From contig JAGVWZ010000016.1 in the NCBI GenBank assembly GCA_018304045.1, positions 18,063 to 82,062 of the forward strand: a stretch of DNA of 64,000 nucleotides, written 5' to 3'. The stretch comes from Candidatus Pacearchaeota archaeon (lineage in GTDB: Archaea > Nanobdellota > Nanobdellia > Pacearchaeales > GW2011-AR1). Positions 39,579-61,344 of this stretch are shown in pieces. The notes below the pieces were generated by a model. It made no database searches. It was not told the DNA's origin and saw only the letters and a program-made list of their open reading frames with translations. Every line of letters begins with the position of its first letter. Within the stretch, counting starts at the first letter, position 1. A program made the translations under genes and the position numbers.

Positions 39579-39773
39579 ATGGAAACACAAACAATAGACA
39601 ATTTGTCAAAAGAAGTAATGCTGTTAAAAAAAGAATTTGCTAAAATGAAAGAATTCATGGAAGAAGATCTTGAATTTGCAAAAAGAACAGAAGAAGCATG
39701 GCAGGAAATTGATGAAGGAAAATGCACTTGTATAAATTCTGAAGACTTTTTAAAAGAAATTAAAAAATGGTAG
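39579..39773 (+). CDS. antitoxin (C-terminally similar to 14251..14520)
   Basis: EEDLEFAKRTEEAWQE...FLKEIKKW versus EEDLEFARRTEEAYKR...FIEEMKKW; immediately precedes and overlaps the toxin gene. Confidence 0.5.
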   Translation: METQTIDNLSKEVMLLKKEFAKMKEFMEEDLEFAKRTEEAWQEIDEGKCTCINSEDFLKEIKKW

Positions 39774-41927: not shown

Positions 41928-42188
41928 ATGTATTTTGTAGAGCTATCAGTTAAAGCTCAAGATTTCTTAGAAAAAATTGATAAAGATACTAAAGATAGAA
42001 TAGAAAAAAGATTAAAAAATCTTGAAAGTAATCCTATTCCAAGCGATTCAAAATTTATTGGAAGAGATAATAATGAAATGGTTTTTAGATACAGGATTGG
42101 TAAATTCAGAGCTCTGTATAAAGTTAAAGAAGCTCAAAAGATAATTTTAGTCACTAAAATTGATAAAAGAGACAAAGTTTATGATTAA
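41928..42188 (+). CDS. RelE/ParE-family toxin
   Basis: 86 aa; FRYRIGKFRALYKV...IILVTKIDKRDKVY typical RelE/StbE C-terminal region. Confidence 0.6.
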   Translation: MYFVELSVKAQDFLEKIDKDTKDRIEKRLKNLESNPIPSDSKFIGRDNNEMVFRYRIGKFRALYKVKEAQKIILVTKIDKRDKVYD

Positions 42189-42304
42189 ACTAAATTCCTT
42201 ATAGTAAAACAATAAAATTTTGTGCAAACTGAACTTTTTTCTTGTTTACGAGCAAAAGGACTTTTAGCAAATTCGATGAAATAAGAAAGCACTTTTGCGA
42301 GTAG

Positions 42305-42315
42305 GGTGGCGCATG
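42305..42315. repeat. att-like copy of the tRNA-Gly 3' end (gggtggcgcat)
   Basis: Preceded by the conserved cassette-end motif (42253..42304). Confidence 0.55.
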
Positions 42316-42364
42316 TTTTACTGAACATTATATAGTCCTTAAACTAAAATGTGGTAGCCGAGAA

Positions 42365-42430: not shown

Positions 42431-43549
42431 ATGGTTTTAAAAGAGCTGATTAAAAACCACTCTGGAAAGATACAAGCATCTCTATCAACGATTATAAAGA
42501 TAATACTTATTTTTTCTATTTTCTATGCCACATACTATCATCTTTGGCATATTTTGTTTGCCAATATTTTTTTATTGTTCTTATTATTTACACCATATTT
42601 TCTAAGAAAAAAATATGAAGTTCATATTCCAAAGGAATTCGAGTTTATTTTTCTTGCATTCATAATAATCTCGTTTTTTCTAGGTGATATAAGGGGAACA
42701 ATTATACAGATTTTTTTTGGAACTGCTATAGCTTTTATTGGATTTACAATAATGCTGATATTGTTTTCAAATAGCAAATTTAAGGCCAATTATCTATTAG
42801 TTATGCTATTTTCATTCAGTTTTTCTGTAACTTTTGGACTTATTGCAGAAATGATAAAATATTATCTAAAAACTTATTTTAATGAAGGAATAGTAAATCT
42901 TAGTGACTATACTTTTGCCATGCAAAATCTTACTTTTGTTGCCATAGGAGCTTTAACTGCATCAGTATTTGGTTTTATTTACATGAAAGGATTTAGAAAC
43001 AAGCTAATGAAAGAATGGGTTGGCAAATTTAAGAAAAGCAATCCAAATTTATTTATTCAAAGAACTGAATCACCTGAAGAAATATTAAAATTAATTAAAA
43101 AAGGTGAGAATGAAAAATTAGAATTCAAATCAACATTAAGGATGAATCTTCATACAGGAGAAAAAGATAGAAAAGTTGAAAATTCAGTTCTTAAAACAAT
43201 TGTTGCATTTTTAAATTCTGAAGGAGGTTGTTTATTAATTGGAATTTCTGATAATAGTGAAATAATTGGTATAGAAAAAGATGGATTTGTTAATAATGAT
43301 ATGTTTAATAGGCATTTTACAAATCTAATAAAAGAAAAAGTTGGAAATGAGTTTTTACCATTTATGAATTTTGAAATAGTATCATTAGATGGAAAAAATA
43401 TCCTTAAGGTAGATTTAGGAAAAAGTGATAAGCCAGTCTTTCTAAAAAATAGCAATGAGGAATTTTACATAAGAGTTGGAGCATCATCAATTCTGTTGAA
43501 TGGAAGTGAATTAATTGAGTATATCAAGAATAAATTTCATATAAGATAA
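42431..43549 (+). CDS. membrane-anchored Schlafen/AlbA_2-domain protein
   Basis: N-terminal ~200 aa with five or six TM helices; C-terminal EKLEFKSTLRMN...VLKTIVAFLNSEGGCLLIGISDNSEIIGIEKD matches the AlbA_2 (divergent AAA / Schlafen) signature. Confidence 0.6.
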   Translation: MVLKELIKNHSGKIQASLSTIIKIILIFSIFYATYYHLWHILFANIFLLFLLFTPYFLRKKYEVHIPKEFEFIFLAFIIISFFLGDIRGTIIQIFFGTAIAFIGFTIMLILFSNSKFKANYLLVMLFSFSFSVTFGLIAEMIKYYLKTYFNEGIVNLSDYTFAMQNLTFVAIGALTASVFGFIYMKGFRNKLMKEWVGKFKKSNPNLFIQRTESPEEILKLIKKGENEKLEFKSTLRMNLHTGEKDRKVENSVLKTIVAFLNSEGGCLLIGISDNSEIIGIEKDGFVNNDMFNRHFTNLIKEKVGNEFLPFMNFEIVSLDGKNILKVDLGKSDKPVFLKNSNEEFYIRVGASSILLNGSELIEYIKNKFHIR

Positions 43550-47070: not shown

Positions 47071-47231
47071 CTTTTATAAAAAGAAGTTATAAGGATTATT
47101 GTTCTAGATGAATCTCAAAAATATGGGCCCACGCGGCCCTAGAATCGCGGAGAGCTCGGTGTAAAAAATAAGAACCTTTTTGTATCCAAAAGAATAATAA
47201 TATTTATAAACTGTACAGTTTATTATATTGT

Positions 47232-48497
47232 ATGTACAAAGATAGATACATTAGAAGAAAAGGGGAATTTTTGGATAATAAGGATATTAATCCTAAAAAT
47301 AGGAAGGTTACTGAAAAGTTCTTTGAATTTGAAGAATACAAACTAAAGAGGAAGCAAGGATTAGCAGAGGTTGATGAAAAATCCTACAAAACACTTTATT
47401 TCTATGTTGGTAGATTGATTAATTTGAATAATTGGTTTAAGAATAAAGATTGGTCTAAATTAACTGAAGAAGAAATAAAAAAATTAATTGATGATTTAGA
47501 AGACGGAAAAATAACAACTCATAAAGGGACAAGATTTACAGACAGGAGTTTGTATTATCAAATGATAAAAGGAAAATTATTTGATTTAGTTGGTAAGAGT
47601 TTTATTGCAACACAAATCCTAAAAGAGTTCTCAATAAAAGGAAGAGAGTTTAGAGATGAAGTAAGATATATTGAAGAAGAGTCTTTTAGAAAAATTGTTG
47701 ATTGTGCTCCAAAGTCAGAACATAAGTGTTTGATGTGGTTAGCTTTTGATATAGGTGAGAATATTGGAACTCTCTTAGAATTGACTAGAGAAGATTTCCA
47801 AAGACAAATCAATCCAGACACTAATGAACCAGAATATTTAGTTATGCTAACTAAAGATAGGATTAAGAGGAGTAGAACTGCAAGAGGTGAAACTACCAAT
47901 CATCAGGAAACTGTAAAATATTTAGATATAATTCTTAGAAACCTAAAACCAGCATCACCAAAAACTTCCACTAGCCGGTATCGCAGGTCACTTAAAACTT
48001 TAAATGAACTACATCCAGAAAACAAACTATTCAAGTTTGGCCACAAAGCATCTGTAAAGTTTTTTGACAGAGCAGTTGTAAGAGCAGGAGTAAAATGTTT
48101 ACCTGGTGGTCAAAAAGTTACATGGAAAGATTTGAGAAGTTCTATGGCTTGTAATTTATTGAGAAAAGAGTGGTCCAGAGACGAGGTAAATGCTAGACTT
48201 GGACATAAGCCTTCTAGTCGTATCATAGATTCTTACATCAACTATCTTTCATTAGATAGAAGAAAACCACAAAAGAAAGTTTATGAAAGCAGTTTAAAAA
48301 AGATTGAAGCTGATTTTGAAAAACAAAAAGAAGTTTCAAAATTACAGGGATTAAAAATTGAAAATCTAAGAGAGGATATAAAACAAATCAAAACAGACTT
48401 TAAATTAGCAATGGAAAAACAAAGAAAACAATTAATTGAAATTGTTATGGAATTAAAGAAGGGACAAGTAAAACCTATTGTTGTTAAGAGTCATTAA
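47232..48497 (+). CDS. tyrosine recombinase/integrase
   Basis: C-terminal catalytic region with R...LGHKPSSRIIDSYINY (H-x-x-R, Y); preceded by GC-rich palindrome gggcccacgcggccc at 47124..47138. Confidence 0.65.
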   Translation: MYKDRYIRRKGEFLDNKDINPKNRKVTEKFFEFEEYKLKRKQGLAEVDEKSYKTLYFYVGRLINLNNWFKNKDWSKLTEEEIKKLIDDLEDGKITTHKGTRFTDRSLYYQMIKGKLFDLVGKSFIATQILKEFSIKGREFRDEVRYIEEESFRKIVDCAPKSEHKCLMWLAFDIGENIGTLLELTREDFQRQINPDTNEPEYLVMLTKDRIKRSRTARGETTNHQETVKYLDIILRNLKPASPKTSTSRYRRSLKTLNELHPENKLFKFGHKASVKFFDRAVVRAGVKCLPGGQKVTWKDLRSSMACNLLRKEWSRDEVNARLGHKPSSRIIDSYINYLSLDRRKPQKKVYESSLKKIEADFEKQKEVSKLQGLKIENLREDIKQIKTDFKLAMEKQRKQLIEIVMELKKGQVKPIVVKSH

Positions 48498-49066
48498 AGT
48501 CTTCTGGGCATTTCAAATAATTTTATCATCTTCTCATCTAACTTCTTTTTAAAATCGTCAGGTCTACCTTTTTGTTTAATAATATAATAGATAACATAAA
48601 ACTTTATTGCAGAGATAAAAATATTTTCTCCAGCATTAAGTTCACATATAACTTCTCTTGCTTCAGGATTATCATATATTTCATTTAAGAATTTCTTTTC
48701 TCTTTGATTTAATTTAATATGCAATTCATCAAATGAATCAAATATAAATTTTATTTTAATTTTATGAACAGGGCTTCTTTGAGTATATTTTGTTCCATTG
48801 AAGTTTGTTTTATTTATTGCATCTGTTCCTTCTTCAATATAATCTGCTTCTTTGAGTTTATCAAATACTTTTGTCACAGCTCCAATACTTTTTACATCTT
48901 TTTTAGTATTTGGATATAATTTTCTCGTAACTTCTCCATGTGTAACAAACTTTCTAAAATATTCTAAAGCGACTTTGTTTTCTCCTATCCCTTTTATCAA
49001 TGGGGGTCTTACAGCAGGATAAACTATTATTGGTTCATCATCTAAAGTTTTTTTTCCTTTCTTCAT
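48494..49066 (-). CDS. hypothetical protein (mobile-element gene)
   Basis: ORF only. Confidence 0.3.
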   Translation of the reverse strand: MKKGKKTLDDEPIIVYPAVRPPLIKGIGENKVALEYFRKFVTHGEVTRKLYPNTKKDVKSIGAVTKVFDKLKEADYIEEGTDAINKTNFNGTKYTQRSPVHKIKIKFIFDSFDELHIKLNQREKKFLNEIYDNPEAREVICELNAGENIFISAIKFYVIYYIIKQKGRPDDFKKKLDEKMIKLFEMPRRL

Positions 49067-49115
49067 TTTAGGGTACCATTAACAGGTATATTAAGTATTT
49101 ATACTTTATTATAAA

Positions 49116-49259
49116 ATGGAACTACAAAAACCAATAAAATGTGAATGCAAGAAGTGCGGCTGGTGCTGGTATTCTACACTTGGCAGAAAACCAAAAGTCT
49201 GCGTCAGGTGCAAGAGGTATGACTGGCAGGAGGAGAAAGATGAGCGAAAACAGCAATGA
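49116..49259 (+). CDS. 47-aa zinc-ribbon protein (MELQKPIKCECKKCGWCWYSTLGRKPKVCVRCKRYDW...)
   Basis: CxCxxC...CxxC; alternative frame to the listed ORF 49141..49395, whose N-terminus (MNARSAAGAG...) looks non-genuine. Confidence 0.35.
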   Translation: MELQKPIKCECKKCGWCWYSTLGRKPKVCVRCKRYDWQEEKDERKQQ

Positions 49260-49521
49260 TTCTATTCTCCTCCAAAAAGAGTCCTTAGACAGAGTCTTTG
49301 ATATAATTGATGAAATGCAGGGCGATATTATTGGTTTAGAGTCAAAATGGTTAAAAGAGGTGCAAGAGGATGACAGAGAACAACAGAGTGATTGATATGA
49401 ACCTATCTGAACCTAATAGCCAATACTTCTCACCACTAGATGATATAATATATGGTGGTCTTATTTTTCTTATATTCTTCCGGAAGAAAAGATTGATTGA
49501 AAGGAGGTTCCGAACTACAAA

Positions 49522-52500
49522 ATGATACCACCTATTCAACTTAGAAAACCCCAATTTAAGTTTATACTGTTGGGTAGGTGGAATCAATATAAAGATAGTA
49601 ATAAAACAATCCATATTTTTGAACCAAAAACGAAGGAAGAATTTGATTCTATAAAAGAGCAGGGTTTTGCCTCCATTGGAAAAGCTCCTATTGAATCTGG
49701 CTGGACTAAGAATTCAGACTATATTTATGCAGACCCAAAACTACTTAGCCATATCTCTGCAGGATATAATTATGGTGTAAAATGTGGACCTGGAAGATTA
49801 AGTATCCTTGATGTTGATGACACATCCATTATCCCAGAGTTAGATAAGATGGTTCCAGAAACCCTAACCATTGAAACAGGAAGTGGAAAACAGCATAGGT
49901 ATTTCCTAGTTCCTGTAGGAACTCCTAAAATAATTTTAGAAAAGAATAAAGTCCATTATGGAGAACTGCAAGGTCCTGGTTCTCAATGTGTTGGGGCAGG
50001 TTCAAAACATCCAATTGGCGGAAAAGAGTATAATGTTATAAAAGATGTGGATATTACAGAACTTTCACAGGAGATTATAGATAAAATTAAAGATAACTAC
50101 ACAGACTTTAATAATGACCCTATAAAAGTCATTTCTCCAGATTGGAATCAGTATAATAAGACAAATATAAGTGACTTATTATCAATAACCACTTTAGTTA
50201 ATTTAGGTAGTATGAAGAAAACTGGTGGAGAGTATTTTGGTTCCCATCCAGTTCATGGCTCACAGACAGGTATGAATTTTTTTATTAATCCATCTAAAAA
50301 TCTCTGGCATTGTTTCAGGTGTGATTCTGGAGGAGATTCTTTATCCCTCTTAGCAGTCAATGAAGGTATTTGCGGATGTAGCGACTTTTCAAGAAGTGGA
50401 AAGAAACTAAGGGGAGAAGATTTTATCAAAGTGAAAAAAATTGTTGAAGAGAAATATAACATCAAGATTCCTCAAAAAGAACTAGAATTAACTCCTTTAA
50501 AGAATATCAAAGTAGAGTTAGGTAGGCGTGTTAAAACAATCGTTTCTGTTTTAGATATGACTCCGGGAGTTAGTATGGTTGTAGGGTATGAAGCAACTTG
50601 TCCACAATGCCTTAGAAATACAATTTTATACCACAAAAATCCTACCTCTTGCTCAATAGCTTTTGCAGAAGAATTAAAAAATGAAAATAAAGCCGGTTGT
50701 CTTGATAGTGCTAATAAACCTATAAAAGTAGATATCAAACCAATACATGAAACAGGTTATTTATTGAGTGTATTTGACCCAAAAGATACTGGAAATAATA
50801 TGCAAATAACTCCAATTTTTATAAAGAATGATTTAATACCTAAAGATTACAAATCTAAAAAAGATTGGGAAGGAGATTTATTAATAAAACCCCTTATTTT
50901 AGAAGGTAAAATCGGAGTTTTTCAATCTTTTAAAAAAAAGTTTGAGGATTGGTTTATTCATGTGGAGAATTATGAGTTTGAGGTGAAAAAAGAAGATGTT
51001 AACTACACACTTTTAAGAAAGTTTGGAGATATCGAGAGGGGTAAGAATTTTTTTGCAGAAAATTTCGCTCCAAGAATCTATGATAGAACACTAGCTAAAA
51101 AGATGTACACATTAACATTACTTTCACCAATAAAAATAAATTTACCTAATGATGAAATTGATTATGGAATAATAAATACGATAGATATGGGTGATGCTGG
51201 ACAAAGCAAAACAAAGCTTAGTAAAGAAACCTTAAAATGTGCAAAGGGGACCAACTCTAAATTTATCAGTGTTGAGAATTCTACAAATAGGGGATTACTA
51301 GGTTCAGTAGTAAAAAGTCAGAATTCTGAATCATGGACAGTTAAGGTTGGAGAGATACCTAAAGCAAGTAATGGATTAGTTTGTTTAGATGGTTATTCAA
51401 AGTTGTCACCTGACGACATGACTCAATTTAGAGGGATTTTAGAGGAGAAAGAGTTTCAGATTACAAAAGCAGGTGGAGTGCAAAAAGAATGTCCTGTTAG
51501 AATTATAATGTTAGGAAATATCGTAAAACCAATAGGGCAATACTCCACCAAACATCAAGCAAGTTTTAATATGGGTGCAACAGAGTCTGATGAAACAAAT
51601 AAATTTTCGGGTCCAGACAGAAGAAGAATTCATCATGTGTCTATTGTTGCTGATTCTGATACCAATGCTAGGGATATTGATATGCATTTATCAAAAAAAT
51701 ATGATAAAGAAAAAATAAGAGAATTGGAAAATTATTGGTCTAATTTAAGAGCTTTCTCTTGGACAAGAAAAGCTGGAGATTTTATCTGGGAAAGTGGTAT
51801 TATAGAATATGTTCAAACAAAAATAGACAGTCTTAGAAAGAAATATCCCAGGTTCTCAATGCAATATGGTGTCTTATCTAAAGGAGGGTCAAAGATGTTT
51901 ACAATCCAGTTACCCACAGTAGCAATGTTACATGAATCAATTGATGACAGTCACAAAGTCGTTATCAGGAAGGACCATGTTGATTGGTTATACCATATGT
52001 ACTTAGAGGAATTTAATGAGTTAGGATTGGGGGCTGAAAATGAAGTATATAGTATTCATAAATTGCATGCTATAGCTATTAGTCGTAATTGTTCAAAGGA
52101 AGTAAAGGAGATATTATTACTTTTACAGAGATATGGGGGAAATCAAACTGCAATTGAAAATGCAGGAGTTGTAAGTCGTATGCACATTAGTCGAATGTTG
52201 AGCAATCCAATAGAGTATGAACTAAAACACATCAGTGGTATAAAACCTCATTGGTATAAACTTAATGAAGGTTCTGGCGAACCAAAAGAAACAAGAGAGG
52301 GTATTAAATTTTTCCCTGATGACGATTTACCATCTATAACAAAAAGGGGCACAGGTTCTTTTACAGATTTTGGTAAAATCTTAATTCAAGAAATATTAAG
52401 GTTAAAAAATGAGGAACTTCAAAAGGATAAGATAATAGGAATCCCCGATTTAGAAGATGTTACATCTGTTACAGGCAGGAATGAAAGTTTAGATAACTAT

Positions 52501-52761
52501 GCAGTTGGCGGCGTTACATCTGTTACAGGTGTTACACCAAAAGAGGATATATCAAATAAAAATATAGAAAAAGTAGGAGAAGTAATACAAAGTAATACTA
52601 GTTCTATTGAAATTAAGAAAAAGAATATACTTGATATTAAAAATAGTGTAACAGATGTAACGAGTGTAACAAAAGATATATTGAATCTCAATAATACTAT
52701 AGGGGATAGTGTAATAGATGTAACAGAAGAACCTGAGTATGAAACGGAGGATTTAACATGA
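49522..52761 (+). CDS. replication protein: primase-polymerase-like N-terminal region + SF3 (D5-type) helicase, C-terminal VTSVTG repeats
   Basis: N-terminal SILDVDDTS / HCFRCDSGGDS (prim-pol and zinc-binding-like); Walker A-like MGDAGQSKT; Walker B VCLDGYSKL; 1079 aa. Confidence 0.6.
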   Translation: MIPPIQLRKPQFKFILLGRWNQYKDSNKTIHIFEPKTKEEFDSIKEQGFASIGKAPIESGWTKNSDYIYADPKLLSHISAGYNYGVKCGPGRLSILDVDDTSIIPELDKMVPETLTIETGSGKQHRYFLVPVGTPKIILEKNKVHYGELQGPGSQCVGAGSKHPIGGKEYNVIKDVDITELSQEIIDKIKDNYTDFNNDPIKVISPDWNQYNKTNISDLLSITTLVNLGSMKKTGGEYFGSHPVHGSQTGMNFFINPSKNLWHCFRCDSGGDSLSLLAVNEGICGCSDFSRSGKKLRGEDFIKVKKIVEEKYNIKIPQKELELTPLKNIKVELGRRVKTIVSVLDMTPGVSMVVGYEATCPQCLRNTILYHKNPTSCSIAFAEELKNENKAGCLDSANKPIKVDIKPIHETGYLLSVFDPKDTGNNMQITPIFIKNDLIPKDYKSKKDWEGDLLIKPLILEGKIGVFQSFKKKFEDWFIHVENYEFEVKKEDVNYTLLRKFGDIERGKNFFAENFAPRIYDRTLAKKMYTLTLLSPIKINLPNDEIDYGIINTIDMGDAGQSKTKLSKETLKCAKGTNSKFISVENSTNRGLLGSVVKSQNSESWTVKVGEIPKASNGLVCLDGYSKLSPDDMTQFRGILEEKEFQITKAGGVQKECPVRIIMLGNIVKPIGQYSTKHQASFNMGATESDETNKFSGPDRRRIHHVSIVADSDTNARDIDMHLSKKYDKEKIRELENYWSNLRAFSWTRKAGDFIWESGIIEYVQTKIDSLRKKYPRFSMQYGVLSKGGSKMFTIQLPTVAMLHESIDDSHKVVIRKDHVDWLYHMYLEEFNELGLGAENEVYSIHKLHAIAISRNCSKEVKEILLLLQRYGGNQTAIENAGVVSRMHISRMLSNPIEYELKHISGIKPHWYKLNEGSGEPKETREGIKFFPDDDLPSITKRGTGSFTDFGKILIQEILRLKNEELQKDKIIGIPDLEDVTSVTGRNESLDNYAVGGVTSVTGVTPKEDISNKNIEKVGEVIQSNTSSIEIKKKNILDIKNSVTDVTSVTKDILNLNNTIGDSVIDVTEEPEYETEDLT
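52459..52728. repeat. iteron-like repeats GTTACATCTGTTACAGG (x2 direct) and GTAACAGATGTAAC (x2 inverted) inside the 3' end of the rep gene
   Basis: Copies at 52459..52475, 52513..52529 (+) and 52647..52660, 52714..52727 (reverse complement); also encodes the VTSVTG peptide repeats. Confidence 0.55.
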
Positions 52762-53012
52762 GTAAACAAATAGATTATAACATAGAATTTTTCGGACTTG
52801 TTCCTTTCAAATGTAAAAAATGTAAAACTAAATTAAAAATGGGTCATATTCCATATAAGGATAAAAGAATTACCATCCCACTACTTTTTTGTCAAAAGTG
52901 TAATGAAATCTTGGAACTGCAAGTATTCTATCATGATGATTGTCCTGCATCAAAAGCAAAAAAGATTAGGGATAAATTTGCTAAAAACTATGGATTAAGA
53001 ATTATTAATTAA
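52758..53012 (+). CDS. zinc-ribbon protein
   Basis: CKKCKTK...CQKCNE. Confidence 0.4.
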   Translation: MSKQIDYNIEFFGLVPFKCKKCKTKLKMGHIPYKDKRITIPLLFCQKCNEILELQVFYHDDCPASKAKKIRDKFAKNYGLRIIN

Positions 53013-53063
53013 TTTTTCCGTCGACAAAGGGATAGTATTTAAACTTTAACTCATTAGAGATAT

Positions 53064-53528
53064 ATGAGGAAAGATAAAGTAAGATTTGGTGCAGTTGTCT
53101 TTATGGTTTTATTTGTTGGTTTGTTAGTTGCAGGATTGTTCTATTTAAGTTATGGAATTGAACAAACTTCTTTTAAATTAAATGAAAAGAAAACAGGAGT
53201 GCAAGAAGATAATATAAAATTCACGGATGCAACATGGCACTTAGTAGATTTTTCTTCCTGCGAAAATGCTTATGATGAAAACAGGGCAATGCAGGAAATT
53301 GGTTTAATATATACTATTCCTTATTATGGAAATGATTATAACTGCAATCTTCAGATAACAACATACTATGATGATGGAAAGGTAAGCACACCTCAATCTA
53401 AAAGATTAGATGAAACAATTCATACCTTTAGTGGATTTAATGTGTTTGACAGCTATAAGTTTACTATTTGTTGCACAGATAATTTTGATACTGCATGTAA
53501 ATCAAAGATGGTTGAAAGTTATTGCTAG
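53064..53528 (+). CDS. membrane-anchored Cys-containing protein
   Basis: N-terminal TM helix; six or more Cys. Confidence 0.35.
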   Translation: MRKDKVRFGAVVFMVLFVGLLVAGLFYLSYGIEQTSFKLNEKKTGVQEDNIKFTDATWHLVDFSSCENAYDENRAMQEIGLIYTIPYYGNDYNCNLQITTYYDDGKVSTPQSKRLDETIHTFSGFNVFDSYKFTICCTDNFDTACKSKMVESYC

Positions 53529-53680
53529 GGGTTGCTTATATCAATTAGTTCGGAGTTCAATTCTATTCAGACCCATTTTTATGAATACAGGATAAACAAT
53601 ATCTTAATCTTGTTGTATGGTCTGATACTCTGCTTGTTTATATACTTCTCCTTATGATTAAATAAATATTAAAGAATAAG

Positions 53681-54058
53681 ATGACAAAGTTAAAAGAGAA
53701 TGTAAATAGATTAAACGCCTTGCTTAAAGAAGGCAAAATTGCGGAGGCTTTTGAAAAATATTACAATCTGGATGTAACTATACATATTGATGGAAATCCG
53801 CCTATAACTGGGAAAGAACAAAAAAGAGAAATGATTTTTCTTCAAGAAATAGAAAAATTAAACAATGCCGAAATAAAGTTAGTTGCTTTTGGAGGAACTG
53901 ATAATGATGTTTCAGTAACAGAATGGGAAATAAATATTGAAAATAAAGAAGGAGTTAAAAAAATAATTTATCGTGTAAATATTCAACATTGGAAAGAAGA
54001 TAAAATTATTAATGAAAAGATATATTTTTGTGGTGACCAAAAATTCAAAGTAGAGTAA
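53681..54058 (+). CDS. SnoaL/NTF2-like fold protein
   Basis: Size and alternating pattern resemble the SnoaL-like polyketide cyclase/NTF2 superfamily; weak. Confidence 0.35.
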   Translation: MTKLKENVNRLNALLKEGKIAEAFEKYYNLDVTIHIDGNPPITGKEQKREMIFLQEIEKLNNAEIKLVAFGGTDNDVSVTEWEINIENKEGVKKIIYRVNIQHWKEDKIINEKIYFCGDQKFKVE

Positions 54059-54343
54059 ATATATATTTTTATAGTTGTAATCAAATCATCTGGATAAATA
54101 CCAGTTTATTAATCCAAGCTGATTAATTAGAGCATAAGCTGTTAAAAAGACTGCAATAAACAAACATATGTACTTTGCATATTTCAGAATATCTTTCTTT
54201 TCTTTTGGAATTGCAATACTAAGAGTAAAGAAAATTGCTATTAAAAGAGGCATTAAGACTTTTTCTGTGTATCCTTGTATCATTTTACTATCTGGTAACT
54301 ATGTGGTAAATATACTATTTAAGTATTATGGTAACTAAGTTAT

Positions 54344-54613
54344 ATGAAAAAGGTAACCAAATGGGACTTAGTTAGTTATGTGCTTGCTAGTTCTTATAGG
54401 AAGAAAGTATTGTCTGCTTTATCAACCCCTAAGACTCCATCAGCTATAAGCAAAGAGATAAGCATAAACAAAACTCACATAAGCAGAGCATTAGCAGAGT
54501 TAGAAGATAAAGGTTTGATTAAGTGTTTAACTCCAAACTCAAAGAAAGGTAAGATATACTCAATCCAAGACTTAGGTAAAGAGACACTAACAGAAGTCAA
54601 TAAGCTAAAGTAA
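54344..54613 (+). CDS. winged-helix transcriptional regulator
   Basis: SAISKEISINKTHISRALAELEDKGLI HTH; followed by an 8-bp-stem hairpin aaagccca...tgggcttt (terminator-like). Confidence 0.5.
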   Translation: MKKVTKWDLVSYVLASSYRKKVLSALSTPKTPSAISKEISINKTHISRALAELEDKGLIKCLTPNSKKGKIYSIQDLGKETLTEVNKLK

Positions 54614-55120
54614 GCCAAAAGCCCATGTCGTTCTATGCCCGAGTAGTTGTGGGCTTTAAAAGAACTGTTAAACCCAAACAATTTAAACAGTTTAATTATA
54701 CCCTTTTATTAGTATATTATTTAACAATTTAATATACTCTGTGGGCACAGCAGGGCTACAGCACCATAACCAAACTAACTAAAAGGGTTAGTCTGACTAT
54801 ATTAAATTACTTTAATATACTAAATAAGTGTGCTAAAGATTTTAAGATGATTTGTCAGCTTAACTCTGATTAATTTTATGTGTTTGTTTTAATGGTTCAT
54901 TTAATCTTTTATGCTAAAAGATTTAACTTCTCAGATAAATAAAGGTAATGACTCTGAATTTATTTTTATATAAATTAAAATTTTTATATAAATTTTCATC
55001 CGGCGTCTCCGGCCTACGCGTATATATATATAATAAAATAGATAGCAGAACTAATAAACAGTTGTATGCGCATGATTGTGTGCATTAAAAGATAAAAGAT
55101 TAAGGATGGATTGATGTTAA

Positions 55121-56005
55121 TTAGTGAACTTCGACTAACATTTTTTGTTGTTGTGGAACTTGAAAGCTTGTTAAGGAAACATTTCGTTTGAATATTTTTG
55201 AAGTAGAGTTATTGTATTTCCTTTTAGTTCCATATTTGATATGGTACTTAATTCCCCTTTCTTTACAAAAGGTTTCTACTACATCTGCTTGATCTTCATA
55301 GAATTGTTCATTGTTAGGGTAATTACTTGAATGGCAATTATAATTTAATTTTCCAAAGATGATATTATCAACAAAAGATACTTTCTCTAAAATGTCTATT
55401 AAATCCTGTTCAACTAAATTGGGTGTTGGATATGGTTCCATACTAACCCAAGTTTTAAGTCCAGCATCATGTAATAGCTTTAAAGCTTTAATTCTACCCA
55501 TATAAGGAGAGCTACCTGGTTCAAATTGTTTCTTAAAGTTTTCATTTAAAGAGACTAATGTAATTCCATATTCATTCTTATCACTATATTTATTTGTATT
55601 TCTTAGTTCCTTAGGATATATTCCTTTTGTTAGAATGGTACACTTTATCCCATTAGAGTTCAACTTATTTATAATCTTAAGAGTCATATCTGCGACTTCA
55701 GGATACAGATACATAAAAGGGTCAGTCATAAAACAAAGATGAACAAACTTAATATCCTTTTTATATTTTGGAATTTCTTTGTCTAATAATTCAAGAGCAT
55801 TTTTCACAAGTTTAGGTTTACACCAATCTTCATAAGATTTTACCTTTCCAAATCTTCTTGACATCATAAAAGCATAACAAGGAAACTTACAACCATGAGC
55901 ACAGCCAATAACATGATTAATACAATAATCTGCATACTCTACTTTGCTTTTATACAACAAAGAATTACGATTAACATATCTCATTTTTATCATCTCCTTC
56001 TTCAT
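55121..56005 (-). CDS. Cys-motif protein (GCAHGCKFPCY), possible divergent radical-SAM-like DNA modification enzyme
   Basis: Three-Cys cluster CxxxCxxxC near the N-terminus; co-operonic with a methyltransferase-like gene. Confidence 0.35.
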   Translation of the reverse strand: MKKEMIKMRYVNRNSLLYKSKVEYADYCINHVIGCAHGCKFPCYAFMMSRRFGKVKSYEDWCKPKLVKNALELLDKEIPKYKKDIKFVHLCFMTDPFMYLYPEVADMTLKIINKLNSNGIKCTILTKGIYPKELRNTNKYSDKNEYGITLVSLNENFKKQFEPGSSPYMGRIKALKLLHDAGLKTWVSMEPYPTPNLVEQDLIDILEKVSFVDNIIFGKLNYNCHSSNYPNNEQFYEDQADVVETFCKERGIKYHIKYGTKRKYNNSTSKIFKRNVSLTSFQVPQQQKMLVEVH

Positions 56006-56062
56006 AATTAAATAATGTTTTTGGTATATATAAGTGTTACCACCACTTCAAAAATAAGAAAT

Positions 56063-57016
56063 TCAAAATAGAGTTCTTTGTCTCTTAGTTACCAGTTCTA
56101 ATGCCATTTCAACGGATTTATCAGAATTAGATTCTATTTCTTTTTTTGCCTTTTCTAATGCTTTTAACCAAGAGGAATCATTTTTTGTTTTATGTGTAAT
56201 AAATAACATATGATATACAAAATTAAATTTTTTTGATTGTATTTTTATATCTTTAACAATACAATCCCCTTTTTCTTTCACAATATTTTCACTATAAACT
56301 TTTACTAAATCGTCAACATCATCTATAGATTTCCAAGACTCATCTCCAAAAAAAACATTTAATCCTTCTCCAGCACATTCTTTATATTTTTTAGCTAACT
56401 GAACTGTTCTTATTATCTGTCCACTCATTAATGTAAAAACAATATCACTCCTTAAGTTAAGAACTTTTTTCATTGATCCCCAATCAAATTCCATACAATG
56501 AGGATCAATGAAAAAGAAAGAATAACCTTGATCTTTATTAATCTCTCTTATAATATCATCTAGACATTCATTACAATTTTTTGAAAAAGTTAATAATTTC
56601 TGTTCTTTAAAATAATCTAGTCTTTCTTTTAATGAGTCAAAAAGAGATAAATCACTTTCACAGAAAAATAGTTTTGTAAATTTATTTCTGTATCTTAATG
56701 TAGCAATTAATGGAGAACCTATAAGAAAATCTTTTTTGTTCTTCATCTTATTTATCCCAGAACCGGCAAATAAATCCACATAATATTTGTTATCAAAATA
56801 TTTGTTGATTATGATAGTGCAGACGTCTAATGCATAATTTAGAAAGACTAATTTAAGTGGTGTCCATTCATTAAATTCATTATAAACCTCTGGTTGTATT
56901 TTTATTATTTCATCTATATCTTTCTTAAACTGAGAGTTTGTAACTTCTAGGGGTTGTATATGTTTCTTTAACCAGTCCATTCCTGTAATCTTTTCCATAC
57001 TAAACAAATAAAACAA
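56063..57016 (-). CDS. methyltransferase-like protein (DxFxGxG motif)
   Basis: VDLFAGSGI matches SAM-binding motif I of DNA methyltransferases; no clear motif IV. Confidence 0.4.
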   Translation of the reverse strand: MFYLFSMEKITGMDWLKKHIQPLEVTNSQFKKDIDEIIKIQPEVYNEFNEWTPLKLVFLNYALDVCTIIINKYFDNKYYVDLFAGSGINKMKNKKDFLIGSPLIATLRYRNKFTKLFFCESDLSLFDSLKERLDYFKEQKLLTFSKNCNECLDDIIREINKDQGYSFFFIDPHCMEFDWGSMKKVLNLRSDIVFTLMSGQIIRTVQLAKKYKECAGEGLNVFFGDESWKSIDDVDDLVKVYSENIVKEKGDCIVKDIKIQSKKFNFVYHMLFITHKTKNDSSWLKALEKAKKEIESNSDKSVEMALELVTKRQRTLF

Positions 57017-57018
57017 GA

Positions 57019-57423
57019 CTATTTAGGATTTATGTTTTTCACAAAAATCCTAACATCACTAAGTTTTGGATTAACAGTATCTTCATCTAACTTATCATCA
57101 TATCTAAATTGAATGAGTTTTAATCCATTTTCTTTACACTTGATAACCCTTAATTCATCATATCTCTTTCTTTGTTCTGTTCTTCCTTCTCTCCTATCCA
57201 TCAGTTTGTTTGGTTTAAAATGTTGTTTTCCCATATATTCAACAACTAACTTATAATCAGGAAAGTAAGCATCAACAGGAAGTTTAGATTGTTTATTTGT
57301 TTTTTTACTTACATCTCCCAAAAGAAAAGGAAATCTGTGTTGCAGGAGAACATTATCTGTTTTGAGAACTTTCTTAAAAAAATTTATACAATTCATTTCT
57401 CCTATTTTCTTTATTGATACCAT
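57019..57423 (-). CDS. hypothetical protein, possible PD-(D/E)xK nuclease fold
   Basis: VDAYFPDYKLVVEYMGKQH; first gene of the three-gene strand block. Confidence 0.3.
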   Translation of the reverse strand: MVSIKKIGEMNCINFFKKVLKTDNVLLQHRFPFLLGDVSKKTNKQSKLPVDAYFPDYKLVVEYMGKQHFKPNKLMDRREGRTEQRKRYDELRVIKCKENGLKLIQFRYDDKLDEDTVNPKLSDVRIFVKNINPK

Positions 57424-57549
57424 TTTTATAGTAAATCTTAAACTGGTTATTATTTATTAATTTCTATTATTAACTATTCAGTTTAACACTAAAAACCTTT
57501 AAAAGGCATAGGTTTATTATTATTTTAAGATTAATTAATAATCTTAAAT

Positions 57550-57620
57550 GGGCTATTAGGCTAGTGGCAAACCGATTCCTTTACACGGAATATTCACCAG
57601 TTCGATTCTGGTATGGCCCA
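57550..57620 (+). tRNA. tRNA-Val (anticodon TAC)
   Basis: Acceptor GGGCTAT/ATGGCCC (one G:U); anticodon stem ATTCC/GGAAT with loop TTTACAC; T-arm ACCAG-TTCGATT-CTGGT; discriminator A; D-stem imperfect. Confidence 0.6.
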
Positions 57621-58075
57621 TATAAATAAAATGAAGACCTCCATAAAAATACTTTTAATTGTAGTATATTTAATTGGTTTTACATTGTTATTACCTTTCT
57701 TTTTTAGTATGCTTGACAAACTTCCTGATTCTTATGCTTTGGGAGTTATCGCTGTCTTGATTATTGTTTTTATGTATTGTTTTATTCCATATAAAATCTG
57801 GAAGTTGAAAAAATGAGTTCATCAGTTTTATACACTAGAGGAATACCAATATTGATTGGGGTTATAATATCTTTTATACTCTATCTACTCTCACAATGGC
57901 TTTTGAACAGAAAAAAATGAGATTGTTTACACAAAAAATTCACTAGTTTGATTTTGACATAATTTCACATGTTTTTTTATAGATTTTTTGTTTTAGAAAA
58001 GTTTATAAGTTTACAATATGGAAAAATATATAGGGGTGAGAAGCACCTCAGGAGCTTATTCTGAGAAGATTTAAG

Positions 58076-59803
58076 ATGGAAAGAAAATCAGAATTTGGTG
58101 GAAAGGGAAATGGATTAGTTTGGCTTGCACAAAATACAGATTTAGGATATGATGTTCCTCAATTTGAAATTATAGACACTTCCTTCTATGAGCAATTTAA
58201 AGGGCAATCTCAAACTCCTCAAAGGTTAGAAGAAAAGTGTAGAGAACTTTCACAAAAATTTAGTGGTAGAGCAGTTTCAGTTAGAAGTTCAGGAGTTGTT
58301 TCTGAAGATAATGATAGATTTTCAGGAGCAGGAATTTATGAGACTTTCTTTTTAGAATCAATGCAATTAACTCCTCAAAGTCTTCATGATTCAGTTTTAA
58401 AGGTTTATTCATCAGTTGATTCAGAAAGAGCAGTTCAATATAGAAAAGAAGCTGGATTGGGAAATGAAAAAATGGCTGTTGTTGTACAAGAAATTGCTGA
58501 TGGGGAGAATGGAGTTTTTATGTCAAGATTACCTGCAAGAGCAGGAATAATTCCTGCTTCTTGGTCAAGAACAATTGGGGCAGTTGTTCAAGGAGATACA
58601 GAATCAGAAGTCCATAGAGCATTTTTTGCATTAACTAAAGATGGTTATAAATTAATGTTTTTAGATGAAAGCTCACCTTATACTGAAGCTACAAATCTAG
58701 GAAATAGATTAGTTCCTTTAACTCAAAGATTAAAAGAAAGATATGGTAAAGAATTTGAAGCAGAATTTTCATATAATCCTAAAAATGAAAAATTGTCTAT
58801 GTTACAAATAAGACCCTTAACAAATGTTCAAGATAAAGAAGTAAAGTTTCCTGATAAAGAACCAATTTTCACAGCAGAATTATGTATGGGTGTTGGAGAA
58901 TATATTGGTCTCATGGTTACTCCTGGAGGTAACACAAATCCTGTTAGAAAATTTTGGGATGAACCAAATCATTATGCTTTTGTTACACCAAGATTAGAAA
59001 AAACTATTCAAAGAGGTTTTGGAGGTTTAGGTTCTTTACTTGGTAAAGGTGATGATTTTGCTTTAGATTATGACCTATTAACTCCTGGTAAAAAAGCTAT
59101 TGTTTTAACACATCAAGCACTTCCAGGTATGCATGCTATGACTGTAGCAAATGAAAAAGGAATACTCTGTTTAGCAAGAGAATGTAATAAATTAGGTGAT
59201 GATGAATTAATTCATAGATATGGAGTAGATAGAGGTTATATAATGGAAATGTTGGGTGGAAGCACTTTATTAGATTCTCCAAAATTTGATATTCCTCTTG
59301 AAGAAGTTGGAAAATATATTCATGTGGTTTCAGACGGATTAAGAGGTCATGTTTATAGAGCAACAGAAGAAGAAGCAAGAGAATTTGAAAAAAGAATGTT
59401 GGGAGATGAAAGATTTGTAGTTTCAGAGATAAGCAGTCCATACGGTGGGGAACTTGCAGATAAGTTTTGGGATTGGGAATTTAAAATAAAACCTCAAACA
59501 GCATTAGTATCTTATCAAACAGTTTGCCAAGATTTTGTTGAACATATGAGAAGAGTATCAGGAAAAAGATTTAGATTAAATGTCTCTCCAGCAAATAATT
59601 CTTATGAACTCACTCATCCATCTAGTGAGTTTGAAGTATTTTATGCTCATTTTGACCCAGAAAAAAGAGATGAAGGAATTTTCTTTGCAACAGGAAGAGG
59701 AGTTTCAGATATATCTGATAAAGAAACAACAAGACAATGGTTTCAACAATTTGTAGACAGAGTTAAAAATCCAGATTATAAACCTCAAGTTGAAGAATAT
59801 TAA
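58076..59803 (+). CDS. PEP-utilising-enzyme N-terminal (PPDK_N, ATP-grasp-like nucleotide-binding) domain protein
   Basis: N-terminal FGGKGNGLVWL as in PEP synthase or rifampin phosphotransferase GGKxxxL motif; GC-richer than genome average. Confidence 0.55.
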   Translation: MERKSEFGGKGNGLVWLAQNTDLGYDVPQFEIIDTSFYEQFKGQSQTPQRLEEKCRELSQKFSGRAVSVRSSGVVSEDNDRFSGAGIYETFFLESMQLTPQSLHDSVLKVYSSVDSERAVQYRKEAGLGNEKMAVVVQEIADGENGVFMSRLPARAGIIPASWSRTIGAVVQGDTESEVHRAFFALTKDGYKLMFLDESSPYTEATNLGNRLVPLTQRLKERYGKEFEAEFSYNPKNEKLSMLQIRPLTNVQDKEVKFPDKEPIFTAELCMGVGEYIGLMVTPGGNTNPVRKFWDEPNHYAFVTPRLEKTIQRGFGGLGSLLGKGDDFALDYDLLTPGKKAIVLTHQALPGMHAMTVANEKGILCLARECNKLGDDELIHRYGVDRGYIMEMLGGSTLLDSPKFDIPLEEVGKYIHVVSDGLRGHVYRATEEEAREFEKRMLGDERFVVSEISSPYGGELADKFWDWEFKIKPQTALVSYQTVCQDFVEHMRRVSGKRFRLNVSPANNSYELTHPSSEFEVFYAHFDPEKRDEGIFFATGRGVSDISDKETTRQWFQQFVDRVKNPDYKPQVEEY

Positions 59804-61097
59804 CATGTTACCAAAAACAGAAATAGATAGATACGGAGGAAAAGCAGCAATCTTGAATCATATTAGAGACAACACGGATTTACCTATTCCACCTTATGTT
59901 GTCGTGCAGGCAGGTCAAGAGATGAGTTCAATAAATGGAGATTTTGATTCTATGAAAAAACCAGTAATTGTAAGGTCGTCTTCACCTTATGAGTATGGAG
60001 ATTTTGAAGGAATTTTTGAATCTGTAAGAGATGTAACTAATAGAGCTCAACTTGAAATGGCTGTAAGAGATGTTCAAGAAAGTGCAAGAAGTGAAAGAGC
60101 AAAACAATATGCAGAACAACATGGATTTAAAATTAGAGAAAATATTCATTTGATTGTTCAAGAACAAACTCCTTCTTTAAGTGGAGGAATGTTAAGACAT
60201 CCAAATAATCCAGATTTAGTATTTATTACATATTTTGAAGGAAGAGGGAAATACAATCAACATTATCACACTTTCCTTTTTGATGAAACAACAGGTGATG
60301 AAAGATATTGTAGAGGATTTACCTCTCATGGAATAGAAAGAAAAGATGCACAATTTTTAGTTGAACAGTATAAAAAGATTGAAGGACTTGAGCAAATTGC
60401 AGATGATTCTACATTATTTGTAGAATTTGGATTTAATCCATTTGCAGTTTATCAAGCAAGACCATTTATGAAAAAACAAATTGCAGACTTTAAATTACCT
60501 GATAATGATTCCGAAAATGATTTAAGAACTGATTTTGTTTTAGGAGTAACCCCTCCTGAAGGTGTATGTTTACCTATTGTAAAAAGTGTTGGATATGACT
60601 TTGCTTTAGCAGCAGTTAATGATGCTGGTAGATTAATGGCAGATGATAGAATGTATCGAGGATTAGATGAAATATTAAAACATGGTCTTGTAACAGTTGG
60701 AATGGTAAGGCAATTTGGAGGACAAATTAACGAGATGGAAGCAACAACTTCCAAAATGAGGGAACTTTATTATGATGCAGAACAACATTTTGAAGGTAAG
60801 CCTTATGGTTTATTAATGAGTAATGCAGAAAGAGACCCATATGATTTAGATTTAATGGTACCAAATATGAGGGGTCTTGTTATAGGCCAAACAGATAGAT
60901 TTTTAGTTCATAATCTAATGAGATTATTCAAGAGAGCAGATGTTACATTAGGAATTGGTCCAAATTTATTTCATACTGAATTTTATAAAAATAGAAATGC
61001 TCAATCTTTTTCTGGAAGGGTTAGGTTATATAGTAATGGAAAAGAAGGAGTTGCTACATTAGAAGAACTTCCTAAAGAAGATGATTGGGAAAATTAA
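59790..61097 (+). CDS. second PPDK_N-domain protein (tandem paralog)
   Basis: YGGKAAILNHI motif; overlaps the upstream gene by 14 nt. Confidence 0.5.
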   Translation: MKNINMLPKTEIDRYGGKAAILNHIRDNTDLPIPPYVVVQAGQEMSSINGDFDSMKKPVIVRSSSPYEYGDFEGIFESVRDVTNRAQLEMAVRDVQESARSERAKQYAEQHGFKIRENIHLIVQEQTPSLSGGMLRHPNNPDLVFITYFEGRGKYNQHYHTFLFDETTGDERYCRGFTSHGIERKDAQFLVEQYKKIEGLEQIADDSTLFVEFGFNPFAVYQARPFMKKQIADFKLPDNDSENDLRTDFVLGVTPPEGVCLPIVKSVGYDFALAAVNDAGRLMADDRMYRGLDEILKHGLVTVGMVRQFGGQINEMEATTSKMRELYYDAEQHFEGKPYGLLMSNAERDPYDLDLMVPNMRGLVIGQTDRFLVHNLMRLFKRADVTLGIGPNLFHTEFYKNRNAQSFSGRVRLYSNGKEGVATLEELPKEDDWEN

Positions 61098-61170
61098 ATA
61101 ATATACAAATAGATTCTAAACATTATTACTAAAAAAGGAACAAAAAGGTTCATATTGGTGTAAACGAGGT

Positions 61171-61224
61171 GGTTTGCCACTAGCCTAATCGCCCATTAGA
61201 TTATTATTCATAATCTTAAAATAA
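61171..61224 (-). pseudogene. inverted partial copy of tRNA-Val (promoter + positions 1-26, then divergent anticodon stem with the same TTTACAC loop)
   Basis: Reverse complement reads tattttaagattatgaataataatctaat-GGGCGATTAGGCTAGTGGCAAACC-ACCTCGTTTACACC, versus ttattttaagattaattaataatcttaaat-GGGCTATTAGGCTAGTGGCAAACC-GATTCCTTTACACGGAAT at 57521..57590. Confidence 0.45.
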
Positions 61225-61344
61225 CTAAAAGTTAAGCATTTAAAAAGCTTACCTGCTTGAAAATAAAGGTTTTGACAACATCTTTAAAAGTTTCTGAATA
61301 AGATTTTACATAATATATTTAAGCAATCATAAAATAAAAATAAG

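Follow-up and report, generated by a model that had tools for sequence, protein, structure and literature searches.

A tRNA-Val half in a Pacearchaeota contig is probably the attL junction of an integrated plasmid-like element that carries its own tRNA-Val

The tRNA-Val half and its intact neighbor

The DNA considered here is a stretch of 64,000 nucleotides (nt) from contig JAGVWZ010000016.1 of a Candidatus Pacearchaeota archaeon (assembly GCA_018304045.1), which we call the window. It contains an intact gene for the valine transfer RNA (tRNA) with anticodon UAC and, 3.6 kb away on the opposite strand, the 5' half of another tRNA-Val gene that stops in the anticodon loop. The GC content of the window is ~29%. 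Its closest named relatives are metagenome-assembled genomes (MAGs) of Pacearchaeota, Nanoarchaeota and Woesearchaeota, all of them DPANN archaea, and proteins identical to those of the window are found on groundwater metagenome contigs. We compared the window with related contig loci from metagenomes and MAGs, labeled L001 to L052, and we scanned one genome per species with a 19-mer from the D arm. The features at the two tRNA-Val loci are as follows.

57550..57620, plus strand: intact tRNA-Val(UAC) gene of type A (defined below), probable cargo, lying between the two attachment junctions (attR and attL) described below
61158..61194, minus strand: 5' half of a type-B tRNA-Val(UAC) gene, positions 1-38, GGGCGATTAGGCTAGTGGCAAACCACCTCGTTTACAC; by sequence comparison, the host side of the probable attL
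61164..61158, minus strand: 7-nt core TTTACAC, the end of the half
61195..61250, minus strand: upstream region of the disrupted host tRNA-Val gene, with a block TTTTAAGATTA...AATAATCT at about -28 and a box CTTTTTAAATG at about -50 recognized by upstream alignment; putative native promoter of that gene

Both ARAGORN and Rfam call the intact tRNA-Val(TAC) gene (57549/57550-57620/57621; 57 bits in Rfam against a gathering score of 29), and neither calls a tRNA at 61158-61194 or at 47124-47165, where a further piece of tRNA-Val sequence lies. The half had been described in an initial annotation as an inverted partial duplicate of the intact gene together with its promoter, and this repeat is real. 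With blastn-short, 57520-57573 matches 61224-61171 on the minus strand over 56 columns with 89% identity (E 3e-9), which is the sole significant repeat of the intact gene, the next best match of the tRNA-Val region in the 64-kb window having an E value of 0.19. A repeat search returned the same pair as the longest inverted repeat of the window (40 nt, 88%). Read on the minus strand, the half consists of ~28 nt of upstream sequence followed by tRNA positions 1-25 with a single change, T5 to G, relative to the intact gene, and the upstream conservation reaches further than had been noticed, to the box at about -50. The 5' strand of the anticodon stem is CCTCG in the half versus ATTCC in the intact gene, and the TTTACAC loop is the same in both. 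After the loop, as the annotation had it, no 3' half follows: the sequence runs into CAATATGAACCTTTTTGTTCCTTTTTT, with neither a T arm nor an acceptor 3' strand.

In L011 and L014, which come from other DPANN MAGs, intact tRNA-Val genes have a 5' half that matches the 37 nt of the half at 37 of 37 positions. The half therefore belongs to a different type of gene, which was truncated, and is not a diverged copy of its neighbor. We refer to this host kind of tRNA-Val(UAC) gene as type B and to the kind of the intact gene at 57550-57620 as type A. The two types show covarying differences in the acceptor, anticodon and T stems, and the 3' half of the intact type-B gene is CGAGGATTCAGGAGTTCGATCCTCTTATCGCCCA. 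Upstream of the half, the sequence is 90% identical over ~50 nt to the upstream region of the intact type-B gene in L011. The -28 block and the second box at about -50 are common to all tRNA-Val genes of the clade (five upstream regions aligned, from the window, L009, L035 and L011), which explains the apparent duplication of a promoter between the half and the intact gene; the half resembles the intact gene because both descend from clade tRNA-Val genes that share a promoter and a D arm. In L025 and L026 there is an extra segment of ~32 nt near 61308, between the upstream region of the half and an open reading frame (ORF) of 171 amino acids (aa).

The earlier suggestion of a relic of a second, inverted tRNA-Val gene is thus right in that the half belonged to a second gene, of the host type, and wrong in that it is not a copy of the intact one. 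The same annotation named a decayed duplicate as the simplest reading should the partial copy have no transcript and no matching 3' half in the genome. A plain decayed duplicate would be an inverted duplication of the tRNA-Val gene and its promoter whose 3' half was lost by random mutation or deletion with no mobile element involved. The near identity of the promoter and of positions 1-25 would fit, as would a weak residual similarity to the intact 3' half after the loop (~14/24 by eye). Against this, the anticodon stem is unlike that of the neighbor and identical to that of intact type-B genes elsewhere, the half ends exactly with TTTACAC, its break point and the next 45 nt recur at junctions in unrelated hosts, and a reciprocal junction with a matching arm exists. 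We consider a plain duplicate barely credible.

A reciprocal junction and the inferred attachment sites

The reciprocal junction was found by direct reading of 47071-47231, the intergenic DNA upstream of an integrase gene; BLAST found no direct repeat of tRNA-Val sequence near the integrase. It lies 14 kb from the half and on the same strand, at 47181..47124, and reads AAAAAGGTTCTTATTT / TTTACAC / CGAGCTCTCCGCGATTCTAGGGCCGCGTGGGCCCA. Together with the sequence beside the half, it yields the following features.

47166..47181, minus strand: probable element end, P arm AAAAAGGTTCTTATTT, adjoining the integrase gene
47159..47165, minus strand: second 7-nt core TTTACAC (anticodon loop), in direct orientation with 61164..61158
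47124..47158, minus strand: tRNA-Val 3'-half remnant CGAGCTCTCCGCGATTCTAGGGCCGCGTGGGCCCA, identified by sequence reading and tests of joined tRNAs
61113..61157, minus strand: probable opposite element end, P' arm CAATATGAACCTTTTT (61157..61142), an inverted repeat of the P arm, then a GAAC/GTTC hairpin and T runs
47166..61157, no strand: probable integrated plasmid-like element of ~14.0 kb, bounded by the two TTTACAC cores

The arms CAATATGAACCTTTTT and AAAAAGGTTCTTATTT are reverse complementary at 14 of 16 positions and are equally spaced from the core. The TTTACAC sites of the window form 130 ordered pairs, and the other 129 reach at most 9/16 in the same comparison. The P arm is identical in L038 and 15/16 identical in L052, and in each it is followed by TTTACAC and a tRNA-Val 3' half. 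On the other side, the 45-nt block after the half is common to three different tRNA-Val 5' halves, those of the window, L035 and L008/L036. The GAAC/GTTC hairpin and T runs within 61113..61157 could, judging from the sequence, be a putative terminator of transcription from the tRNA promoter.

Joined at the core, the two arms would form an attachment site of the element (attP), AAAAAGGTTCTTATTT-TTTACAC-CAATATGAACCTTTTT, in which two 16-nt inverted arms surround a 7-nt overlap corresponding to the anticodon loop. The attP junction sequence would then read ...AAAAAGGTTCTTATTTTTTACACCAATATGAACCTTTTT..., and the target site in the gene before integration (attB) would read ...AACCACCTCGTTTACACCGAG..., followed by either the remnant or the type-B 3' half. 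A core between two inverted repeats is the classical arrangement at the core sites of tyrosine recombinases, and at the level of sequence the layout of 16-nt repeat, TTTACAC and 16-nt repeat mirrors the stem, loop and stem of the tRNA gene. The inferred attP and the type-B gene share 8 nt only, TTTACACC. With so little in common between attP and its target, the tRNA gene is not rebuilt on integration.

The half is truncated, it has a reciprocal junction, and the arms of the two junctions rebuild an attP, so we read it as attL and not as an inversion scar. We consider it highly probable that the half is the attL junction of a ~14-kb element that split the host tRNA-Val(UAC) gene and carries its own copy. 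A plasmid-like element would have inserted site-specifically into the anticodon loop of the chromosomal tRNA-Val(UAC) gene, leaving the host promoter and the 5' half at one end and a 3' half at the other, on the same strand at a distance of 14 kb. The intact tRNA-Val(UAC) gene at 57550-57620, which lies inside the element, is probably a spare or replacement copy and would restore the function lost with the cut gene. Since the intact gene is cargo of the element, its inverted orientation relative to the half and the spacing of 3.6 kb are incidental. The integrase encoded at 47232-48497 would have catalyzed the insertion, and the order of events would be that given here.

The initial annotation had also proposed a recombination or inversion scar made by an integrase. 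The integrase part of this proposal stands, in the form of the attL junction; the inversion does not, as the partner of the half is 47181..47124 and not the intact gene. With 57521-57586 and 61224-61158 as sites, the 3.6-kb segment carrying the PPDK_N genes would flip or would have flipped. The segment does have an inverted repeat of 40-56 nt at its ends and a tyrosine recombinase encoded 9 kb away, and archaeal integrases are known to invert DNA between tRNA genes (PMC8371274), which counts in favor of a flip. However, the arm beside the half pairs with 47181..47166, and nothing comparable stands beside the intact gene. An inversion between the copies would swap which copy is intact and would leave the missing 3' half unexplained. 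The proposed comparison of orientation in related genomes gave a single answer: the tRNA gene and the half have the same relative orientation in all contigs spanning both (L001, L002, L004 and L005), contigs covering the half side alone are collinear with the window, and among all contigs spanning either end of the segment none is inverted. An invertible segment is therefore a very improbable source of the half.

The remnant CGAGCTCTCCGCGATTCTAGGGCCGCGTGGGCCCA has the length expected of a tRNA 3' half, a TTC at the T-loop offset and an end in ...GCCCA; it is GC-rich, and its T arm is degenerate. ARAGORN does call a tRNA at a relaxed threshold when the remnant is joined to the L035-type 5' half. 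Two MEGAHIT k141 contigs of one sample, L045 and L020, overlap by exactly 141 nt and meet at 47126/47127, inside the 3' end of the remnant, and this branch in the k141 graph hints at an alternative allele.

The presence of 5' and 3' pieces on the same strand raises the further possibility, also put forward in the annotation, that the half belongs to a split tRNA whose two halves are transcribed apart, pair and are trans-spliced into tRNA-Val as in Nanoarchaeum equitans. The check suggested there was to look for a 3' piece whose leader would pair with the sequence trailing the half, and such a piece exists: its leader is complementary at 14/16 positions, and a duplex is predicted by cofolding. 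The break lies in the anticodon loop, and the 5' half keeps its promoter block. The duplicated core even gives the h-B-H-B-h' layout of a bulge-helix-bulge (BHB), with 4 + 3 nt per strand, a UUUA helix H and a CA/C bulge, and cuts at CA/C would restore UUUACAC. However, the complementarity is what would be expected from attP arms, and an integrase and a replicase gene lie between the halves. The halves of the window are not cognate: the acceptor pairs at 4/7 positions, the T arm is broken, and ARAGORN does not call the joined halves even at -ps80. When tested against the 3-4-3 BHB motif, the layout fits and the motif itself is absent, as the central helix UUUA/UUUA has 2/4 pairs and does not appear in the minimum-free-energy cofold. 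In addition, the intact tRNA-Val(UAC) gene 3.6 kb away argues against a need for a spliced product.

Other candidates for the missing 3' half were tried and rejected. A structural scan of the window for an anticodon 3' strand, a T arm and an acceptor complementary to GGGCGAT returned chance-like matches without a T loop. The sole sites for ATCGCCC as acceptor partner are at 49320 on the minus strand, in coding-like sequence, and in the half itself, and a match to GGTTCATAT at ~49400 was taken as chance. A very long intron joining the halves was also rejected, since ARAGORN with introns gave only a tRNA-Gly with an intron. In synteny searches, the type-B 3' half was absent upstream of the 20308-20907 gene (the neighbor of the tRNA in L011) and absent after tRNA-Gly (the neighbor of the tRNA in L035).

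The integrase, its relatives and the content of the element

The integrase gene next to the reciprocal junction has an intact ORF that is full length compared with its homologues. The Pfam domain PF00589 falls below the cut-off in the protein of the window (23.1 bits vs 27.1), and among the aligned homologues it is found in 18 of 19, with a SAM-like N-terminal domain in 8. For an AlphaFold2 model of the protein (pLDDT 78), the top 50 PDB matches listed are all tyrosine recombinases, including IntI, Cre, lambda Int, XerA, XerH and the Tn1549 Int. The residues R213/215/218, K299-x-x-R302, H325 and Y335 are conserved in the alignment of homologues and, as a sequence pattern, fit the catalytic signature of tyrosine recombinases. 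There are 483 homologues at E < 1e-5, mostly in DPANN MAGs.

The genes and other features within the element, apart from its ends, are the following.

47232..48497, plus strand: tyrosine recombinase/integrase, 421 aa, assigned from Pfam matches of homologues and predicted fold
49522..52761, plus strand: replication protein with PrimPol, Zn-ribbon and MCM-type helicase regions, 1079 aa (Pfam)
55121..57016, minus strand: cargo, a radical-SAM/DUF5131-like protein and a 317-aa protein, matching both components (B and A) of the PADLOC candidate defense system PDC-M41
57019-57423, minus strand: 134-aa ORF directly upstream of the cargo tRNA-Val, matching phage HNH/homing-endonuclease families (PHROGs, E 1e-13)
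57424..57549, plus strand: upstream region of the element-borne tRNA-Val, a putative promoter, conserved in L009 and L035
58076..61097, plus strand: cargo between the tRNA and attL, two PPDK_N (ATP-grasp-like) proteins of 575 aa and 435 aa (Pfam)

The PPDK_N gene pair thus lies between the two tRNA-Val copies, as had been annotated; it has no PADLOC match. Pfam shows PrimPol-MCM, radical-SAM and PPDK_N proteins in the element, scans of viral contigs came back empty, and PHROGs recognized no virion gene among the 10 small and unassigned ORFs scanned, the matches being a regulator, HNH and proteins of unknown function. We describe the element as plasmid-like for this reason; it could conceivably be a divergent virus.

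The same break recurs in related genomes. Orphan 5' halves ending exactly at TTTACAC are found in three further contexts.

L008/L036: the sequence upstream of the half differs from the window; after TTTACAC comes the same 45-nt block as in the window
L012: the upstream sequence differs from the window; the sequence after TTTACAC is unrelated to the window
L035: a different tRNA-Val 5' half, located 2 nt after a tRNA-Gly, is followed by the same 45-nt block as in the window

After TTTACAC, the halves of the window and of these contexts continue into at least two unrelated sequences. In sequence terms, a break that stays at one place in the anticodon loop while its partners vary is the signature of site-specific recombination. 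For the integrase family, a tRNA-Val(UAC) half cut at the loop abuts the integrase gene in 8/8 genomic contexts examined.

Among these, the integrase in L038, from a Pacearchaeota MAG, is 90% identical to that of the window, and the junction beside it repeats the arm and the core without change and continues into a well-formed 3' half (CGAGAATTCACCAGTTCGATCCTGGTATCGCCCA). Beyond this junction are host genes, including a thermosome gene, that are syntenic with 16-28 kb of the window; on its other side are the int gene, a gene for a 190-aa protein and the PrimPol-MCM gene, whose product is 71% identical to the window protein. The L052 integrase is 98% identical, and here a near-identical arm and the core lead into the 3' half, also well formed, of a further tRNA-Val. 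In L040 and L048-L051, with integrases 58-65% identical to that of the window, a tRNA-Val 5' half ending in ...CTCG/TTTACAC lies immediately upstream of the integrase gene, so that the orientation of attP is flipped in these loci.

The intact gene inside the element also has a counterpart. In L035, an intact tRNA-Val(UAC) gene with a different body lies 1.4 kb inside the same P' arm, on the opposite strand. Its ~85 nt of upstream sequence are homologous to window positions 57466-57548, and beside it is a 91%-identical homologue of the window ORF at 53681-54058. Upstream of the type-A gene of the window, the sequence is 83% identical to the region upstream of this different tRNA-Val body in L035, and with the tRNA included it is 88% identical to L009 over 228 nt.

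The 3' half in L038 can be joined to the 5' half in L008/L036, which is from the same MAG, to give a canonical tRNA-Val that is called by ARAGORN with default settings. In this MAG (JBAZJQ01), the cognate 5' half (L036, L008) and 3' half (L038) are on separate contigs. The 5' half keeps ~75 nt of the element arm, and the flanks on both sides are host-like (saccharopine dehydrogenases, a dUTPase, ion transporters). From the host-like flanks and the different contigs, we infer that the halves were scattered after integration. These cognate halves form a cloverleaf when joined (L036 and L038), which speaks for a split tRNA; against it, the L008 5' half has G1 changed to A and is without the promoter block. 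For the window, the non-cognate halves, the lack of a proper BHB central helix and the intact tRNA-Val(UAC) gene in the element make trans-splicing very unlikely, and the complementary leader is better explained by the attP arms. The splicing endonucleases of these archaea have relaxed specificity. It is conceivable that the integrase family makes ready-made split tRNA genes, with the attP arms becoming trailer and leader and the paired transcripts spliced, in genomes with cognate halves, into newly arisen functional split tRNAs like those of Nanoarchaeum, although we regard this as quite improbable. The promoter-bearing 5' half of the window might be expressed, putatively as a stable tRNA-half RNA.

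Other pieces of tRNA-Val were noted in several of the related loci. L052 has two more orphan att-like remnants, at 7650-7692 on the plus strand and ~115 nt beyond attR on the minus strand; one of them, TTTACAC/GGAGAATTCACCAGTTCAATTCTAGTATCGCCCA, is a 3' half with an acceptor strand that would suit a GGGCGAT 5' half. Orphan "3' two-thirds" of tRNA-Val, with an anticodon arm, a T arm and hairpin-like leaders, are present at 3442-3509 and 4173-4209 of L011 and at 4139-4173 and 6350-6458 of L012, and some of these fragments belong to a ~110-nt repeat common to both contigs. At 4573-4643 of L015, on the minus strand, there is a chimeric tRNA-Val in which the loop connects a type-B 5' half to a 3' half rich in GC, and the acceptor pairs at only 5/7 positions; the chimera could have arisen by recombination of different tRNA-Val genes at their anticodon loops. 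Orphan pieces are arrayed in both orientations in L011, L012 and L052, indicating that repeated integration or recombination does occur at such loci.

Several observations weigh against the interpretation of the half as the attL of an element that carries a replacement gene. The non-cognate remnant, with its 4/7 acceptor pairs, its degenerate T arm and the ARAGORN result at -ps80, means that a single, simple integration into one intact gene cannot have produced the present flanks, for which serial integrations or recombination between elements must be invoked. In L009, the type-A gene adjoins a host-like gene for a YitT membrane protein. No intact tRNA was found within 10 kb downstream of the integrase in L049 and L051, nor in the shorter stretches available in L048 and L050. 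Neither an empty site nor a circular attP form turned up when viral and metagenome contigs were searched with a degenerate attL/attR/attP/attB pattern, the source population being apparently outside those collections. A search of the PDB with the integrase alignment as a sequence profile gave no match, and the assignment to the tyrosine-recombinase family draws on weak Pfam matches and the predicted fold. The degenerate att pattern does match the window itself. An exact scan for the P' arm returned two useful loci and three chance matches, the P arm and the block upstream of the cargo tRNA had no match in the viral contig scans, and look-ups of the flanking proteins returned collinear contigs only, with no empty site.

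Some of these points would be accommodated by a composite history, in which an integrase did make the half and 47166-61157 joins at least two elements, or an element and captured host DNA including the type-A tRNA-Val gene, so that the intact gene may be chromosomal and not cargo. The non-cognate halves at the junctions, the modules shuffled between the window and L035, the host-like gene beside the type-A gene in L009, the arrays of orphan tRNA-Val fragments at related loci and the assembly-graph branch at 47126/47127 all speak for it. On the other hand, the arms make a near-perfect symmetric attP, the block upstream of the cargo tRNA is found together with the P' arm in L035, which is an independent host, and no host-type gene is recognized between the junctions. 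We consider a composite history unlikely and retain the single element with its own tRNA-Val as the preferred interpretation.

Comparison with known systems and the surrounding region

Archaeal elements of the SSV1, pNOB8 and pTN3/pT26-2 types have an attP with at least 40-50 bp of tRNA sequence, so that the gene is rebuilt, and strand exchange by the SSV1 Int borders the anticodon loop (PMC8371274). This review describes the gene-rebuilding att sites of archaeal tyrosine recombinases and does not mention DPANN. The element of the window resembles these systems in its tyrosine recombinase, its tRNA target and the tRNA fragments at its borders. In contrast, its direct repeat is the 7-8-nt core only, there is no rebuilt gene at either junction, and its int gene is intact (421 aa), whereas the SSV type splits its own int gene.

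The closest parallel that we are aware of is the tRNA-dependent lysogeny of actinophages (Fionnbharth, Cluster L, Gaia; Guerrero-Bustamante & Hatfull 2024), in which a tyrosine Int uses an 8-10-bp core shared by attP and attB, located at the anticodon region of a tRNA gene (PMC10865867). No gene is rebuilt in these phages, and a phage tRNA of the same isotype is required for lysogeny, as shown experimentally; archaea are not mentioned (PMC10865867). The window element likewise has a tyrosine-family integrase, an attB in a tRNA gene, a core of ~8 nt and a tRNA that is not rebuilt, and it bears a tRNA-Val(TAC) at 57550-57620 between its junctions, as is also seen in L035. The systems differ in that the actinophages are bacterial temperate phages with proven complementation, whereas here the host is a DPANN archaeon, the element is plasmid-like and complementation is inferred. 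The attP of the window also has a near-perfect 16-nt inverted repeat, and tRNA-Val(UAC) is the target across the integrase family. Our best reading is therefore an archaeal, plasmid-like and family-wide variant of a strategy described so far for some bacterial viruses only.

In Caldiarchaeum subterraneum, an orphan 5' fragment of tRNA-Thr(GGU) lies beside an inserted element that encodes a recombinase, and the authors suggested that tRNA halves become scattered when recombination follows integration (Sugahara et al. 2012, PMC3293823). The orphan 5' fragment left by integration of a mobile element is the same here, and scattering is seen in the Pacearchaeota MAG. The Caldiarchaeum case differs in that the tRNA gene was restored, with an intron added, and the fragment repeats it in direct orientation 1.8 kb upstream, whereas the gene of the window is truly split and an independent replacement is carried by the element.

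Nanoarchaeum equitans and Caldivirga have split tRNA genes whose halves are trans-spliced. Like these, the window, which comes from a DPANN-type archaeon, has separate 5' and 3' pieces that are broken at the anticodon loop and have a complementary trailer and leader. Unlike them, it has no canonical BHB, its two halves are non-cognate and separated by an integrase gene, and there is an intact isoacceptor gene.

The genomes of DPANN archaea are minimal and usually single-copy for tRNAs. If true, the interpretation given here would extend tRNA-dependent integration, demonstrated by experiment only in actinobacteriophages (2024), to Archaea and to a plasmid-like replicon, and it would give a role to at least some tRNA genes on mobile elements of these ultra-small archaea. 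It would also introduce a large uncharacterized integrase family of DPANN with a compact, symmetric attP of 16-7-16 nt. These tRNA genes, recently cut at the canonical position in the superphylum to which Nanoarchaeum belongs, flanked by complementary sequences and in some cases already scattered, bear directly on the origin of split tRNA genes, and the architecture of the cut gene would be a concrete route from integration to split tRNA genes and their complementary flanks. In practice, orphan tRNA halves in DPANN MAGs can serve as precise markers of mobile-element borders, and caution is advisable before annotating them as split tRNAs.

To the left of the element, we noted a tRNA-Gly(GCC) gene at 38756-38883 on the plus strand with a 55-nt intron at position 37/38, an archaeal mark. 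It is seen by ARAGORN with the -i option only, and default ARAGORN and Rfam at the gathering threshold miss it. A 79-nt repeat, ~89% identical between its copies, is located downstream of this tRNA-Gly (38947-39025) and upstream of a Schlafen/AlbA_2 gene (42243-42320).

There is also a polymorphism in the population at 44989/44990. Left of 44990, positions 1-146 of L022 encode the C-terminal end of a TnpA-like protein of the IS200/IS605 type and contain a hairpin rich in GC, which suggests an insertion sequence present in some strains. Contig L018 begins exactly at this point. The break at 44990 had been considered as a border of the element, and it was rejected as an IS200/IS605-like insertion polymorphism. 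Between the tRNA-Gly and this site are two small ParE-toxin-like genes and the gene for the Schlafen/AlbA_2 protein (39767-40015, 41928-42188 and 42431-43549, respectively), and this region looks like an accessory or defense island.

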